NCBI GenBank assembly: GCA_041601615.1
Contig: JBFIHX010000004.1
Span: 64,001 to 128,000, forward strand
Direction: 5' to 3'
Length of the DNA stretch: 64,000 nucleotides
From: Thermoplasmatota archaeon
GTDB lineage: Archaea > Thermoplasmatota > E2 > JACPAO01 > JAHFTW01
The notes under the pieces are model-generated. The model did not search any database. It was given only the letters and a program-made list of their open reading frames with translations, and was not told where the DNA came from. This document shows, piece by piece, positions 20,243 through 48,795 of the stretch (position 1 is the first letter of the stretch; each line of letters starts with the position of its first letter). The position numbers were made by a program, and so were the translations under genes.

Positions 20243-20351
20243 CTACCGTACTTTTTTGGTGCGCCCATCGTCGCCCCCTCTGGGGCCACCGAAGGTCCAC
20301 TCGCCTGCGGCTCGCCGCAAAATGAAAGCCCTACCGGACCTTCTTTGTGCG
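20243..20351 (-). mobile_element. Structured gene-end element at the rnp1 stop with a synonymously recoded duplicate RTKKVR*
   Basis: 20243-20263 and 20331-20351 both encode RTKKVR* with 4 third-position differences; core CGTC-hairpin-ACCGAAGGTCC(A/G)CTC-hairpin-TCGC shared with 46563-46614; mobility is inferred. Confidence 0.7.
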
Positions 20352-43649: not shown

Positions 43650-45344
43650 ATGCGCGTTCTTGGTGCCGTTGCCTTGACGATCCTCGTGTCCTTTGCAGGC
43701 TGCCTTTCGAGCAATTCCACGACTCCCGATTCGGGCGCGGGGATGCAGATTCCGGTAACGGAGGGCGATGCGCAGCAACCGTTTGCGACGTTCCTTTGCA
43801 AGGACGGCTATGTGGCGGCCGGGGGGCTTACTGCTGCCAACTTGGATCGCTGCAACCACCGCGTCACCAAGCCCCTGTTGGATGCGTCCCGCTTGGATGT
43901 CGTCGGCCAGCATGGGCCCGCCAATGAGGTCAGCATTGCCATGAATCCGACAAACATCCTCAATGCGGCGGGCGGCGCGAAGGATTACACGGTCAGCTAC
44001 GTCAGCGACGACGCGGGGTGTGGCGAATTCACCGTCTGGATGGGCACCTATGCTACCTTCGATGGCGGCCTCACTTGGTCCAATGATTTGATGCCTGGAT
44101 TCCCCGGCGACGACCGACCCAGCCCGCTTTCTGGCAATGGCTGCAACACGGACCCGGTTTTGGTGTTCGACGACGACGGTACCTTGTACTACAGCGGCCT
44201 GAATTACCGGGGCGCTCGCGATGACTTATCCACCATCGATTTTCCGGGCACCGAGCACGACGCAGTCACCGGCAGCCAAGTGTACTTTGCCCGCAGCCAG
44301 GACGGCGGTGCCAGCTACGACCGGATTACGTTCACAAGCTTTGGCGACAACGACAACGTGTTCAACGACAAGCAATGGTTTGCGGCCCAGGCTGGCGGCG
44401 ACCACATGATTCTGACGTGGAGCGATTTCATCGGCCCCGGCCCCGTGATTCTGTACTCCGAGAGCCTTGATGCGGGCGCAACTTGGACCCCGCCTCGACC
44501 CATTCCGGGCGCCAACGCGCTCACGGTTTTGGCAGTTCAAGATTCCATGCCGCAGTACTTCACGGGCCCGGCCGGTGAGCAGCGCGTGGCAGCCACTTGG
44601 GTGAGCACGGGGGTTAAAGCAAGCCCCCACAGCGAAGGCCCCGAGTCGGTCATTGCCTACGCGGAGGGCATCGTCACTCCCGCCGGCGTCCAGTGGATTC
44701 CCGCCACAGCCGCATTTTCCTACAACCCGGTCCAATCTGGGCCCGGCCGCGACGGCAGTGGCCCAAGCACCTTCCGCTGGGGCACCATCCCCGTGCTTGC
44801 CGTAGACACCATTGGCGGCGCGTGCGATGGCCGACGCTATGTGGTCTGGGAGGACCAACCTGGGCCCCTGGACTCCGACGTGAACGTACTGCTTCGCTAC
44901 AGCGACGACGGCGTTGCCTGGTCCATGCCCCTGCGCGTCAGCTACACCGGCACCGGCGACCAATTGATGCCGTGGATTGAAACCGACGAGGAAGGCGGCG
45001 TGCACGTTGCCTACTACGACCGCCGCAACGATCCTGACAACCGCCTCCTCGACGTCTACTACGCATACTCCGAGGACTGCGCCGAGACATTCTTGCCAGA
45101 CATTCGAGTCACGGAAGCAAGCTTCGACGGCGACCTGGGCCACCACCAAAACGGCTCGCCCTTCATTGGCGACTACATTGGCATGGACGCCACGAGCGAA
45201 GCGGCGATGATCATCTGGGCCGACACGCGCCACACGGGAAGCCCCGGCCGCGAGGCAGGAAGCGACGTCTACACCGCGACGATTCTGCGGGACCTGGATG
45301 TTCGAGCCCAGTTCGACGCCGTGTTCAGCGAACCTCGGCCGTGA
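43650..45344 (+). CDS. BNR/Asp-box beta-propeller (sialidase-like) lipoprotein
   Basis: FAGCL lipobox; TFDGGLTW, SQDGGASY, SLDAGATW and SDDGVAW Asp-boxes; FIGDY. Confidence 0.85.
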   Translation: MRVLGAVALTILVSFAGCLSSNSTTPDSGAGMQIPVTEGDAQQPFATFLCKDGYVAAGGLTAANLDRCNHRVTKPLLDASRLDVVGQHGPANEVSIAMNPTNILNAAGGAKDYTVSYVSDDAGCGEFTVWMGTYATFDGGLTWSNDLMPGFPGDDRPSPLSGNGCNTDPVLVFDDDGTLYYSGLNYRGARDDLSTIDFPGTEHDAVTGSQVYFARSQDGGASYDRITFTSFGDNDNVFNDKQWFAAQAGGDHMILTWSDFIGPGPVILYSESLDAGATWTPPRPIPGANALTVLAVQDSMPQYFTGPAGEQRVAATWVSTGVKASPHSEGPESVIAYAEGIVTPAGVQWIPATAAFSYNPVQSGPGRDGSGPSTFRWGTIPVLAVDTIGGACDGRRYVVWEDQPGPLDSDVNVLLRYSDDGVAWSMPLRVSYTGTGDQLMPWIETDEEGGVHVAYYDRRNDPDNRLLDVYYAYSEDCAETFLPDIRVTEASFDGDLGHHQNGSPFIGDYIGMDATSEAAMIIWADTRHTGSPGREAGSDVYTATILRDLDVRAQFDAVFSEPRP

Positions 45345-46311
45345 TGTAGACCCAGCGCGCCGGAAATGAAGCACCGTCAAAAACGCGGTCGGCTGCCATG
45401 CGCAGCACCCGCAACCGATCCGAGACCGCCTCCGGGCTTGGTTCTGTGCCCTCGACCTTGGGGCTGCCACCCATCCAGCCAACGATGCCGTCGTGGTAGA
45501 CACCAAGGAACTCCATCCACTCACCCACATCCACGTCGAACACTTGTTCCCGCGTGGAGATGATCTCGAAGCCGGCAGCAACCAGCGCACTCGTGTAGGT
45601 CTTGAGCGGCCGCACCGGCAGGAAGTAGCGTTTGCGCAGCGCGTCGTGGCTCTCCATGCAAACGGCATCAGACAGCGCCGGTCGGTATGCTGCGAACGAG
45701 TCGTCCTCGGCCACAATTTTTGCCGCTTCGGCCGCAAGCGCGTGCACGGTTTCGTCGATGATCCATTCGCCCGTGTCCGGGTGCTCTGGGGCTATGTTGC
45801 CCGATTGAATCACGGCACGGCCGCCGGGTCGCAGCACGCGGCGCCAGGCACGCAACGTATCGGCAAGGTCGTAGTAGAGGTGGATGGCGTTGGCGCTGAC
45901 GATGGCAGCAACACCTCGAAGCAAGTGCATTCCAACGACTTCGTCCAAGGACTCCAAGCGACGCACCTCGGGTTGGTAGCGAATGAGTCGGAACGCCGTG
46001 CGCGGGTCGTTGCCGTGTTTTTCCAGGTCCAAGCGGAGGAATTTGGCCGAAGCATCCACGTTCAAGATTCCGATGCTGCGGTCGCCCGCGCGCGCCAGGA
46101 GCCTATCGCCGAGCAGGCCGGTGCCGCCGGAGTAGTCCACCACGATGTGGCCGTCGCCAAGAAATTCCAGCACTTCGTCCACCGTAGGGTTGAGGTTGTC
46201 GTACCAACCGTGGCCTCCCAACAAGTCATACCCCCGCGCCAAGTCCGACAACGGCTGCCGAGTCCAGGGGTCATCCTCGATGCGCTCAAAGCCCGCTGGC
46301 CAGACGTTCAT
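45325..46311 (-). CDS. Class I SAM-dependent methyltransferase
   Basis: VVDYSGGTG; ANAIHLY; RVLRPGG. Confidence 0.85.
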   Translation of the reverse strand: MNVWPAGFERIEDDPWTRQPLSDLARGYDLLGGHGWYDNLNPTVDEVLEFLGDGHIVVDYSGGTGLLGDRLLARAGDRSIGILNVDASAKFLRLDLEKHGNDPRTAFRLIRYQPEVRRLESLDEVVGMHLLRGVAAIVSANAIHLYYDLADTLRAWRRVLRPGGRAVIQSGNIAPEHPDTGEWIIDETVHALAAEAAKIVAEDDSFAAYRPALSDAVCMESHDALRKRYFLPVRPLKTYTSALVAAGFEIISTREQVFDVDVGEWMEFLGVYHDGIVGWMGGSPKVEGTEPSPEAVSDRLRVLRMAADRVFDGASFPARWVYITAEVR

Positions 46312-46415
46312 AGCGAACCGAAGACGCAGTACCAAATTAGGCCGTTCGATGGTTGCACAGACATCGCCATGGGTGCGAGGCAGGACATCGCGCCTGATTT
46401 GGCGCCGAAATGCTA

Positions 46416-46677
46416 GGCTACGCCCTCGGCAAACCTAGGGTTTTGGCAATCACCACCGTCCCGTGCAAGCACGGGCCGAAGGATTCCTCGGGCTTCGCCC
46501 TAGGCATCGCGAAAACGACTCCCCCTCGCTACGCTCGGGGCAACCCTAGCGTTTTCGCGATCCCCTTCGTCGCCGGACAAGCCGGCACCGAAGGTCCGCT
46601 CGCTGCGCTCGCTGATTACCAAAACCCGTTTCCCTCGGGCTACGCCCTCGGCAAACCTAGGGTTTTGGCAATCACCA
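46416..46677 (-). mobile_element. Tandem pair of 111-bp structured gene-end elements with three copies of the acyl-CoA dehydrogenase 3' end
   Basis: Stop codons at 46640, 46529 and 46418 (111 bp period); 46416-46455 identical to 46638-46677; 46529-46561 encodes the same [10 protein letters not shown] with 7 synonymous changes; mobility is inferred. Confidence 0.8.
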
Positions 46678-47797
46678 TCCTCTGCACTTCCGACGAACCC
46701 TCGCCGATCTCACAGAGCTTGACATCGCGGAACATGCGCTCCACTGGGTAGTCCTTGGTGTAGCCGTTGCCGCCGTGGATCTGAATCGCCTCGGTGGTGG
46801 CCTTCATGCCGACTTCGGAAGCGTAGAGCTTGCCCATGCTAGCTTCTTGCGTGAACGGCTTGCCTTGGTCCTTGAGGACGGCGGCGCGTTGCAGCAGGAG
46901 GCGGGCCGCGTCAATCTGCGTGGCCATGTCGGCGAGTTTGAAGCTGATGGCTTGGTTGGCGGCGATGGGCTTGCCAAATTGCTTGCGCTCCTGGGCGTAG
47001 GCAAGGCTTGCGTCCAGCGCTCCCTGCGCGAGGCCAAGCGCGAGGCTGCCGATGGCGATGCGGCCAGCGTCGAGGGTCTTCATGGTGCCGACGAAGCCCT
47101 GTCCAATGCCGGCGTCGCCGCCAATGACGCGGTCGTCTGCCAGCCACAGGTCTTCAAAGTAGAGTTGGCTCGTGATGCTGCCGCGCATGCCAAGTTTGTC
47201 TTCCTTGTTGCCCATGTTGAGGCCTTTCTCGCCCTTCTCGCCAATGAACGCCGTGATGCCGTGCGCGCCCTTGGAGGGGTCCGTCTTGGCCATGATGGTG
47301 AAAGTGTCCGCGATGTGGCCGTTGGTGATGAATTGCTTCTGGCCATTGATGAGCCAGCCGTCGCCCTCGCGCACCGCCTTGGTTTCGAGGCCCGCCGCGT
47401 CGCTGCCCGCGCTCGGCTCTGTCAGGCACCAGGCACCGATTTTCTTGCCCTGCGCCATGTCCGGGATGTATTTTTGGACCTGCTCGGGCGTGCCTTGGCC
47501 GTAAATGTGGCTGATGCCGAGGCCGTTGTGGGCGGCGAGGCTCAAACTGAGGCTGCCACTGACGCGAGCAATCTCCTCGATGGCAATATTGTAGCTCACG
47601 GTATCGAGGCCGCTGCCGCCGTGCTCGGGCGCGACCGTCATGCCCATGAGGCCCATGGCGGACATCTCGGGGACCATTTCGGCGGGCCACCAATCCTCGG
47701 CATCCATCTTGGCTGCGATGGGGCCAACGCGGCTCTCGGCGAACTCACGCATGGTCTGGCGGATGAGCTCTTGCTCCGGCGTCGGTTGGAAGTCCAT
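46640..47797 (-). CDS. Acyl-CoA dehydrogenase
   Basis: [10 protein letters not shown]; [10 protein letters not shown]; ERKQFGKPI; QIHGGNGY; [10 protein letters not shown]. Confidence 0.95.
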
Positions 47798-47919
47798 GAA
47801 ACGACCACGCAGGGTGTGGGTCTTGGGCGTTTCGCACTTGGCCGGCGCCTAAAGCAACGCTCGCGTCATGCTGGACTTGTCCCCAAACCCTTGTGGCGCC
47901 TGCTGCCGAGGAACAGGGT

Positions 47920-48795
47920 ATGAACAGACGCACTCGGTTCATGGTACTCGCCTTGTCGGCATTGCTGTTGCTTGCCGGCGCCTCCGCCATTCACCCCCAG
48001 GCCCTGCAAAATGGCAAAAACGTCATCTTCACGCACGGCGGCGGCAACGAATGGTGGGTTCAAGTGCGGCTCACCGGCACGGGCGGCGCGTCTGCCACTT
48101 CGGTGCAGGCGATGGACACGGGCGGCGGCTGGGTTCCGTTGAATTCCCAGACTTGGGGCGGCGACCACACCTGGTGGGCCGGCAGCTTCCACATCGAGCC
48201 TGGAAACAAGGTGATGTTCCGCGCCAATTTCCCCGGAGTCAACGAATTCCAGAGTTGCTGGTTTAGCCACCCGGCCGGCGTGGAAGATTGCGCCCCGCCT
48301 CCCTCGGGAACCCCTGGGCCGCCCGGACCCCCTGGGCCGCCTGGCCCTGCTGGTCCGATGGGTGCAAACGGAACTGATGGAGCGCCAGGCACCGCCGGCC
48401 CCCCCGGACCTCCAGGACCACCTGGACCGCCGGGCACCAACGGAACAAACGGAGCCCCAGGCCCCGCTGGACCCCCCGGACCCGCCGGCACCAACGGCAC
48501 GAATGGAGCACCGGGACCTTCGGGTAGTACCAAGGTAGACGGCACCCCATCCAACTCGGCAACCGGTGCCGCAAAAGGCACCCAAACCGCCGCCACGGCA
48601 TCCTGTGCCGCCGGCAAAATTCTGCTAGGCGGCGGGGCGGTTGTCACCACGACAGACACGGCCTTAGACAAGGTTGTGCTGGCCTCGTCCTATCCATCAA
48701 GCACGACTACTTGGACCGCCACGGGCACAGTGCTCGCCAATCTCAGCTCGGGCAAGATCATGACCGTGCAGGCCTTCGCCTTGTGTAGTCTCTAG
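47920..48795 (+). CDS. Secreted collagen-like protein
   Basis: Signal peptide; N-terminal beta domain; long Gly-X-Y run rich in GPP; C-terminal C..GK..LGGG..SYP domain. Confidence 0.85.

Follow-up and report, generated by a model that had tools for sequence, protein, structure and literature searches.

What kind of process places two further copies of a gene's own end behind that gene, one of them spelled in different codons for the very same peptide? This question is raised by an acyl-CoA dehydrogenase gene at positions 46640-47797 of the window, i.e., the whole stretch of 64,000 nucleotides analyzed here; all coordinates and readings of the array behind this gene refer to the minus strand. 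The open reading frame (ORF) carries four Pfam ACAD domains (Acyl-CoA_dh_N/M/1/2, best E-value 2e-52), and its orthologues in metagenome-assembled genomes (MAGs) of other Thermoplasmatota share 75-88% identity with it. A repeat search returned one family with three 45-nt copies (46416-46460, 46527-46571, and 46638-46682), being 100, 76, and 96% identical to the reference copy, with start-to-start distances of 111 and 111 bp between the three tail copies. A 14-nt core of the tail copy matched three times in the window at up to two mismatches, compared with 0.31 matches expected. An earlier note on this DNA had described three copies with an exact 111-bp period and a purely synonymous middle copy, with which the repeat search and the codon comparison agree. 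Read from the gene outward, the order is A-E1-B-E2-A, with two units of ~111 bp, E1 and E2, located between the tail copies. The locus is limited on its right-hand side by a methyltransferase-like gene (45325-46335, minus strand; weak matches to Methyltransf_12/11), a homologue of which also lies downstream of the corresponding array in a congener (G002), and an antisense ORF running across the array has no Pfam match.

The functional tail A1 (46638-46677, with peptide and stop at 46640-46672) and the distal pseudo-tail A2 (46416-46455), which is followed by unique downstream DNA, are identical across 40 bp, as previously noted. Tail B (46529-46561) differs from the functional tail in 7 of 33 nt, located at codon positions 3, 3, 3, 3, 3, 1, and 3 (T/C, C/G, C/G, T/G, G/C, A/C, and G/A, given as A/B). 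All seven differences are synonymous, the one at a first position belonging to an AGG/CGA arginine pair, and tails A and B consequently translate into the same ten-residue peptide plus stop. Among all 99 single substitutions of the 33-nt tail 27 are synonymous, and in a Monte Carlo simulation seven random substitutions preserved the peptide and stop in 5 of 200,000 trials. Together with the genome-wide codon differences described below (75 synonymous, 16 non-synonymous), this bears out the view that local duplication and decay did not produce the middle copy. The recoding of tail B needs no special process; it resembles the orthologous functional alleles of related lineages.

All genomes compared in this study are MAGs, and a tandem array of this kind could in principle be an assembly artefact, in which strain variants of one gene end were collapsed into a false tandem. 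Arrays of identical units found at contig ends (ends of contigs C9, C10, and C4) and the break of a congener's assembly within its dehydrogenase array would fit this explanation. We consulted Logan contigs of four runs from one marine-metagenome study, which is possibly the source of the assembly and does not represent an independent replication. A 242-nt unitig of the 31-mer graph spans A-E2-B-E1-A with no differences in three runs, which also passes the strain-collapse check proposed earlier. Its depth of 19.3, 5.8, and 6.5 resembles that of its flanks (28.5, 7.1, and 6.1), and the 40-nt A block forms a separate unitig of about twice the depth of its neighbours in two runs. Furthermore, MAGs of other projects, built with other assemblers, show this architecture again, and the intervening modules are structured and conserved, a feature that a collapse would not create. 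An artefact is thus extremely improbable. A joint in run X4 that "goes back 222" was considered as a sign of a circle and dismissed, being expected of a 31-mer graph with a 40-bp repeat at low depth.

Both units share a peculiar anatomy. The inverted-repeat search returned two arm pairs (46613-46627 with 46660-46674, and 46503-46517 with 46550-46564), each arm being 15 nt long and 93% complementary, with 32 nt between the arms. The existence of one matching fold-back arm per unit had already been recognized, yet its extent is larger: the first ~26 nt past each stop repeat the entire tail in inverted, imperfect form. Together with the tail and the stop, this fold-back makes up a palindrome of ~62 nt with the stop codon at its centre (GC-GTA-GC). 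In the predicted hairpin, this codon constitutes the loop of a GC-GTA-GC mini-hairpin with tandem G.A pairs on either side. In unit 1, tail A1 provides the 5' half of this palindrome, and thereby the 5' arm of a predicted hairpin of ~25 bp, with the fold-back at 46614-46639; in unit 2 tail B does so, with the fold-back at 46506-46528 (arm CGTTTTCGCGAT plus cap half CGAGGGGG). The cap half co-varies with the recoding, reading CCGAGGGC/GCCCGAGG in A and CCCCGAGC/GCGAGGGG in B, and so does the outer stem. Past the fold-back of unit 1 lie a second mini-hairpin with tandem G.A pairs (module M, 46596-46613, cap type CGAGCGNAGCGAG) and a predicted two-tier hairpin H2 (46562-46595; outer stem CCTTCG/CGAAGG, inner stem GCCGG/CCGGC), which abuts tail B. 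The equivalent parts of unit 2 are M' (a GGGC-GAA-GCCC hairpin) and H2' (CCCGTG/CACGGG), both located within 46456-46505. Compensatory differences among seven related modules are found in the inner stems of H2.

Folding both strands as DNA and as RNA, as the earlier note had proposed, gave predicted hairpins with the tails as arms, with the sense strand being the more stable one in both cases: unit 1 reached -35.1 kcal/mol (z -6.35) for the sense strand as DNA versus -26.1 for the antisense strand, and -56.2 versus -43.8 kcal/mol as RNA. With the 95th percentile of cross-locus pairs as threshold, the fold-back of the tail is significant at 10 of 32 loci and hence not confined to this one; five loci of the set have mis-set stop coordinates.

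Extension of the analysis toward relatives included two congeners (G001 and G002, with the present genome being termed G000), a genome of another genus (G006), and one of another family of the same order (G026). The dehydrogenase locus could be read in 10 orthologous loci, with one further locus being unreadable. A metagenome scan with the dehydrogenase returned one close orthologue of 83% identity, cut at residue 270. The number of units is zero in eight orthologues of other genera, one in G001, two in G000, and at least three in G002; the unit count is hence not invariant across orthologous loci. In G001 the single module is a hybrid of E1 at its 5' and E2 at its 3' side, and the second tail is decayed (MVLAKTRGLPRAQ, no stop). 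In G002 tail A' is followed by E1, B', and at least two further E2-B' units reaching up to unique downstream DNA, with the assembly breaking inside. E1 of G000 and G002 is identical at 73 of 77 positions, compared with 87% for the whole locus. B and B' were read to differ in 9 of 33 nt, affecting six codons synonymously and one non-synonymously. Since a B-type allele adjoins the unique downstream DNA in G002, the B-type occupies the native, distal position there, and the fold-back of this distal tail matches again.

These comparisons sort the earlier interpretation, two successive insertions with alternating alleles forming a chronological array, into two parts. That units with alleles and matching fold-backs of their own were inserted holds up, considering the varying unit number, the distal B-type in G002, and the congener-like distal tails at the other loci described below. 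A chronological order is unsupported, because a unit could enter any tail copy by recombination, e.g., B-E2 into the second tail of A-E1-A; entry of A-E1 followed by B-E2 and the reverse order both yield A-B-A. Allele B, proposed earlier for a test as the functional end in other strains, was not seen as the expressed end in any of the 10 readable loci. A2 is probably the displaced native end of the dehydrogenase gene. The 40-bp identity of A1 and A2 leaves no sign at this locus that A-E1 came from elsewhere.

Re-encoded gene tails occur throughout the genome (2.79 Mb, 30 contigs, 61.7% GC, 93% complete). For all stop-to-stop ORFs of at least 100 codons, the last ten residues were searched for a stop-terminated re-encoding of at least 7 of 10 residues within 450 nt downstream. 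This test was positive for 41 of 14,038 ORF ends, compared with a single one when downstream regions were permuted. Some of the 41 are antisense shadows, low-complexity sequences, or natural paralogues (ribosomal stalk proteins), leaving ~30 genuine gene ends. Host genes assigned by Pfam include those of EF-2, RtcB, V-type ATPase D, a class II aminoacyl-tRNA synthetase, RNase P p29, a 2-oxoacid dehydrogenase beta subunit, and three more acyl-CoA dehydrogenases. The p29 gene provides a second example within the window (20243-20333, minus strand), where the gene end (DRTKKVR*; Pfam RNase_P-MRP_p29) is followed by a 62-nt module of the same M plus H2 type and a recoded tail (DGRTKKVR*). A direct-repeat census of 87 loci, in which internal protein repeats are mixed with elements, served only as a source of extra examples.

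Across 29 curated loci the codon differences between paired tails amount to 75 synonymous and 16 non-synonymous ones, compared with an estimated ~43% synonymous under free decay of one copy (binomial p = 1e-14). Several tail pairs are perfectly identical over 18-75 nt with the stop codon alone being different. At the 24 tabulated loci the ORF runs without interruption into the proximal tail, which has a stop of its own. A single measurable spacer is present at 20 loci; it ranges from 54 to 109 nt, falls between 69 and 83 nt in 13 of the 20, and contains no ORF. At 14 of these 20 loci no more than 4 nt separate the end of the duplication from the first base of the stop, and the stop codons of the two copies often differ. 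The left edge of the duplication varies by locus, giving duplicated lengths of 14-195 nt.

The modules themselves fall into several sequence families sharing the common plan of a mini-hairpin and a second hairpin. A profile of the first family (nhmmer, E-values up to 0.003) detected 22 copies at 15 loci. At 13 of these the copies lie downstream of a protein gene and on its strand; at the other two, they lie upstream of a tRNA gene in opposite orientation, with the 5' part of the tRNA and its upstream region being duplicated.

Which of the two tails is native can be judged best where the site of a congener is empty or occupied by something else. In these cases the comparison shows the distal tail to be the native one, with the proximal tail plus module being the insert: at four other loci the distal tail is nearer to the congener's tail, with a clear margin at three and a slight one at the fourth. 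At the RtcB locus, G002 has an empty site, and its tail matches the distal copy of G000 at 66 of 84 nt and the proximal one at 58; its TAA stop codon and downstream DNA likewise go with the distal copy. At the C9 locus, the tail, stop, and downstream DNA of the empty site in G001 match, by reading, the distal copy of G000, and in G002 this gene end is occupied by a module from another family, so that one gene end presents itself as an empty site, with a class II module, and with a class I module among three congeners. At the transketolase-C locus, the distal tail of G000 matches the two tails of G002 at 47 and 43 of 51 nt, and the proximal tail of G000 matches them at 37 and 39. A single substitution and a 5-nt indel separate the modules of both genomes there, leaving 73 of 79 aligned columns identical, with the genes being 88-89% identical. 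G000 has the module-matched allele alpha in proximal and allele beta in distal position, G002 has beta on both sides, and G001 shows an alpha-like working tail and at least two units. The slight margin belongs to the aminoacyl-tRNA synthetase locus, where the congener's tail matches the distal copy at 56 and the proximal one at 53 of 66 nt; G001 is marginally nearer to the proximal copy (54 versus 53) and has an array of its own encoding DRVTP* in three different ways.

On balance, we favour a reading in which non-coding miniature cassettes, composed of a replacement tail, a stop, and hairpins, recombine within the tail homology and displace the native tail, and we consider it rather probable. 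They look like an undescribed kind of miniature mobile element. A unit of ~111 bp would consist of the replacement last codons and stop, the inverted tail copy, the G.A mini-hairpin, and the second hairpin, and would enter by recombination inside the homology between its own tail and that of the host. The gene would then end in the tail of the unit, and the host tail would be shifted downstream as an untranslated pseudo-tail; repeated entry as well as unequal crossing-over could let arrays grow and shrink. We infer the unit of mobility, this way of entry, and a horizontal origin, in which the carried tail would be the working gene end of an earlier or related host lineage. A tail that once was a working gene end would differ from the resident one almost only at synonymous sites, and the duplication edge would lie at the stop because the homology between lineages ends there. 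The tail pattern of the transketolase-C locus would follow from different crossover points within the tail, for which a fixed insertion point does not account.

Some observations fit this cassette reading less well. Long identical tails with different stops (e.g., over 75 nt) count against it, a host-templated duplication being their simpler source; the initial capture of a new gene's tail and the tracking of the tail by the fold-back count against it as well, both being outside its account. For the latter, a templated correction of the quasi-palindrome or a guide function may be speculated upon. Further points against it are the aminoacyl-tRNA synthetase tails, both of them about equally near to the congener, the 40-bp identity of A1 and A2, the negative searches for a linked enzyme and for a free form described below, and the reliance on MAGs and on runs of one study. 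The nearly perfect pairs are the reason why a transposable module of another type retains some, albeit low, probability. It would insert at or just after the stop, generate a long and variable target-site duplication of 14-195 nt from the host tail, and have its working tail overwritten later by homologous recombination with alleles of relatives. A right edge within 4 nt of the stop at most single-spacer loci would be expected of it, as would distinct module families with a nearly equal left edge at the same gene end of G000 and G002, and aminoacyl-tRNA synthetase tails being roughly equidistant from that of the congener. However, the drop of identity at the RtcB locus is confined to the proximal tail (58/84, compared with 66-78/84 in thirteen 84-nt windows of the gene body), whereas an imported tract would normally reach into the gene. 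The transketolase-C fold-back matches alpha, which is proximal in G000 and absent from G002 despite its near-identical module. In addition, the differences between B and B' are unexpected for two fossils of one insertion, and no transposase candidate was found. Altogether, this renders the transposable module unlikely.

Selection by the host offers another explanation, according to which the modules would be immobile 3'-UTR devices, i.e., mRNA-stabilizing or termination hairpins evolved in place with tandem duplication. The sense orientation of all first-family modules next to protein genes downstream of the stop as well as the better folding of the sense strand, both as DNA and RNA, would suit such a role. 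Native downstream tracts rich in pyrimidines come after the distal tail, so that module and pseudo-tail probably lie within the transcript. Evolution in place does not account for an additional tail copy under coding constraint, nor for near-identical modules behind genes that differ by 11-12% between genomes, empty versus filled sites among congeners, and module families common to ~15 unrelated loci. A benefit for the host would in any case be compatible with mobility. We regard purely host-selected devices as very unlikely.

Comparison with known systems places the units between several categories. Prophages and genomic islands integrate into the 3' end of protein or tRNA genes and bring a substitute end, as known for phage 21/e14 in icd. 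As in the present case, the gene is kept intact by a supplied end, the insert lies between direct repeats of that end, and tRNA genes are affected, too. In contrast, those elements are kilobases in size and have a tyrosine or serine integrase and a fixed core, while here an integrase link is missing, the crossover differs between G000 and G002, and the repeat measures 14-195 nt. The closest analogue in print appears to be the mobile ORFs of fungal mitochondria (atp6, atp9, cox2, and nad3 of Allomyces and Glomus), for which native C-termini are reported to be 91-98% identical to a relative and inserted ones 64-81% identical (PMC3630166). They likewise insert a foreign in-frame C-terminus, leaving the native one downstream, untranslated, and nearer to the relative, with largely synonymous differences (PMC3630166). 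Their inserts are ~1 kb in size and encode a LAGLIDADG or GIY-YIG homing endonuclease, whereas hairpins of 54-109 nt are found here. Further differences are the ~30 gene ends per genome, the arrays, and the fold-back of the tail. Viewed as tail-replacing elements, the present units provide an in-frame substitute end, and the native end lies downstream and is nearer to relatives, clearly so at three of four loci; with no ORF in the spacers, they carry neither an integrase nor a homing endonuclease of their own.

Integron arrays are similar in being polar arrays of small units beside a fixed point, each with a folded hairpin site, and in that a gene-proximal entry would put the coding piece of the unit to use. 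They differ by their integrase and attI, neither of which is present here, and by R'/R'' core sites, none of which were seen by eye; moreover, the units encode alternative alleles of one tail. REP and REPIN sequences and other small palindromic extragenic repeats are also short, GC-rich, multi-copy hairpins located just past stop codons, in several families with a common cap motif. REPs require RAYT (Y1) transposases, none of which was found in G000, and leave gene ends unduplicated, unlike the present units. MITEs are defined by terminal inverted repeats and short target duplications of fixed length; here, the inverted repeats are internal (arm versus tail) and the duplicated length varies from 14 to 195 nt. 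PATEs derived from IS200/IS605 are reported to make no target duplication (PMC3119063). The present units fit neither these nor TnpB-guided elements, as duplicated tails are present and TnpA(Y1) or TnpB matches are absent from G000. A CRISPR array was dismissed from the anatomy, considering that the would-be repeats E1 and E2 are strongly different, and that alleles of a single gene tail take the place of spacers. A diversity-generating retroelement was rejected as well, as the differences are all synonymous and not adenine-specific, and no reverse transcriptase match was obtained in G000. An archaeal bulge-helix-bulge intron and translational bypassing were rejected from the anatomy, the required pairings being lacking.

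A search for the enzymatic machinery returned no match in G000 to the Y1 transposase (PF01797; the control search matched 6 of 14 genomes), TnpB (PF07282), or reverse transcriptase (PF00078), and as this genome is 93% complete, their absence is not proven. No integrase linked to the elements was found in G000. The strongest candidate, a 436-aa tyrosine recombinase on contig C16, was discarded, as its homologues are limited to 8 of 24 family genomes, with G001, G002, and G006, all of which bear elements, lacking one. A low-GC region behind the module of a NucS gene (C4, 57.9-63 kb) was likewise dismissed as a large island; it encodes TPR, MarR-type, and unknown proteins and no integrase. Two module patterns gave no match each among viral contigs, the whole array as query gave none in phage and plasmid collections, and a free, circular, or autonomous form of the element was not seen. 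An Rfam 15 scan of 45800-47200 had RtT as its best match, at 19.3 bits compared with a gathering score of 45 (E 0.9). A literature search returned no description of such elements in archaea among the papers listed.

A bolder extension would make the units a new class of selfish cassettes that are enzyme-less or guide-bearing. The inverted tail, or a transcript of hairpin plus tail, might act as a base-pairing guide directing a nuclease or recombinase of the host or another source to unoccupied gene ends, and the synonymous tail would be the resistant rescue copy, resulting in a natural cleave-and-rescue gene drive at ~30 housekeeping genes. Since one conserved coding tail borders a module at either end, the module would have both homology arms needed for homing into any related genome, whatever lies downstream. 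We rate this extension as quite doubtful.

If the cassette reading is true, an order of uncultured marine Thermoplasmatota harbours prolific mobile DNA that is invisible to standard annotation, as it lacks ORFs, terminal repeats, and an Rfam family. It would edit core genes at their 3' ends (EF-2, RtcB, V-ATPase D, an aminoacyl-tRNA synthetase, RNase P p29, and acyl-CoA dehydrogenases) without breaking them, and would leave dated fossils of alleles that are older or foreign, a built-in record from which gene flow between lineages could be traced. At the same time, it would break short-read assemblies at housekeeping genes and mislead the annotation of gene ends as well as dN/dS studies. The strategy of bringing one's own gene end would then reach a miniature, non-coding scale, beyond kilobase prophages and mitochondrial homing-endonuclease genes. 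A testable question would then be by what means a hairpin module of ~76 nt, bearing a fold-back of its target, can spread although no enzyme is recognizable.

The elements occur across the order. In the 10-contig assembly of G006, 400 kb of which were subjected to the tail test, 7 of 2,025 ORF ends were positive compared with one in the control, and four of the seven matches show the same anatomy including co-varying fold-backs. For 185 kb of G026 the test gave 4 of 1,001 ORF ends compared with one in the control, and this anatomy is found there, too. The class-level outgroup G039 gave 0 of 507 (control 1), its GC content of 30% making it a weak control. The cap motif CGAGCGNAGCGAG occurs 29 times in G000, compared with three times for a reversed-pattern control; among 24 other genomes of the family it is enriched in 23, with counts of up to 34 compared with 8 in the control, whereas the remaining families of the order and class hardly differ from the control. 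The module caps GCGTAGC, GCGAAGC, GCGCAGC, and GCGGAGC fit the GCGNAGC motif. In work on oligonucleotide chemistry, this motif is reported to form extraordinarily stable DNA mini-hairpins (PMC13037366), with no link to a mobile element being seen. A separate, REP-like family bearing the same cap is also present in G000.

A second tail-carrying module of the window lies behind the gene for the RNase P subunit p29 (20243-20333, minus strand), the end of which, DRTKKVR*, is followed by a 62-nt module composed of M, the G.A-paired mini-hairpin, and H2, the second hairpin, and then by DGRTKKVR*. Four of the seven codons common to both tails differ synonymously. A threefold succession was found in the congeneric genome G001 (contig C4, locus L226) downstream of a class II aaRS gene, where the last five codons, DRVTP*, are present three times, each time encoded differently and each time followed by its own matching fold-back, i.e., the inverted copy of the tail after the stop codon. 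Within the MAG containing the window (G000), another gene end (C6:12238-12700) carries a 96-bp identical duplication, beyond which the tails differ at the protein level (..KKEVSHLKHGTDLHKATDLN* vs ..KKEVTHLKAGTIGQEAP*), as would be expected if the extreme C-termini originated from different lineages.

Tandem units are also located beside tRNA genes of the same MAG. Modules of family 1, as defined by the nhmmer profile, are arranged antisense to the tRNA upstream of tRNA-Ser(TGA) (C2:114776-115087, three modules with a 109-bp period) and of tRNA-Leu(TAA) (C14:35615-35800, two modules with a period of about 100 bp); at both sites, the 5' part of the tRNA together with ~35 nt of upstream DNA is duplicated in slightly changed form. 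Upstream of tRNA-Leu(CAA) (C5:116260-116600), two 122-bp tandem units were detected, each resembling a tRNA-like pseudo-gene in which an insert of ~60 nt with a GGGGCGCTGCCCC hairpin lies between a matching acceptor 5' end and a T-arm/3' end. The single ARAGORN call in this region was the last, normal tRNA.

Separate from the tail modules, G000 hosts a REP-like family of long intergenic hairpins of ~60 nt with the layout TAACGG..GAGCTAAC.. cap CGAGCGNAGCGAG ..GTTGAGCGATTTGTTA, the cap being a mini-hairpin motif common to this family and the tail modules. Copies are located at C1:1942, C1:204499, C4:186275, C5:16724, C16:3837, C16:5347, C21:891/2968/6581, and C25:4450/7047, and no duplicated gene tail was found near the REP-like hairpins of this genome.

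An 83-bp tandem unit is common to the end of C4 (235625-235753) and the start of C9 (1-200) of G000, and these two contigs are probably linked via an array of 83-bp modules. Such repeats also end several other contigs of this MAG, namely C5, C10, C11, C22, and C30.

The entire array of 111-bp tail units at the acyl-CoA dehydrogenase gene is covered by an antisense ORF of 113 aa with internal repeats (window 46410-46751, plus strand). Pfam gave no match for this ORF, and most likely it merely reflects the repetitive sequence beneath it. Upstream of the dehydrogenase, a 300-aa ORF (window 47893-48795, plus strand) displays a signal-like N-terminus and collagen-like repeats.
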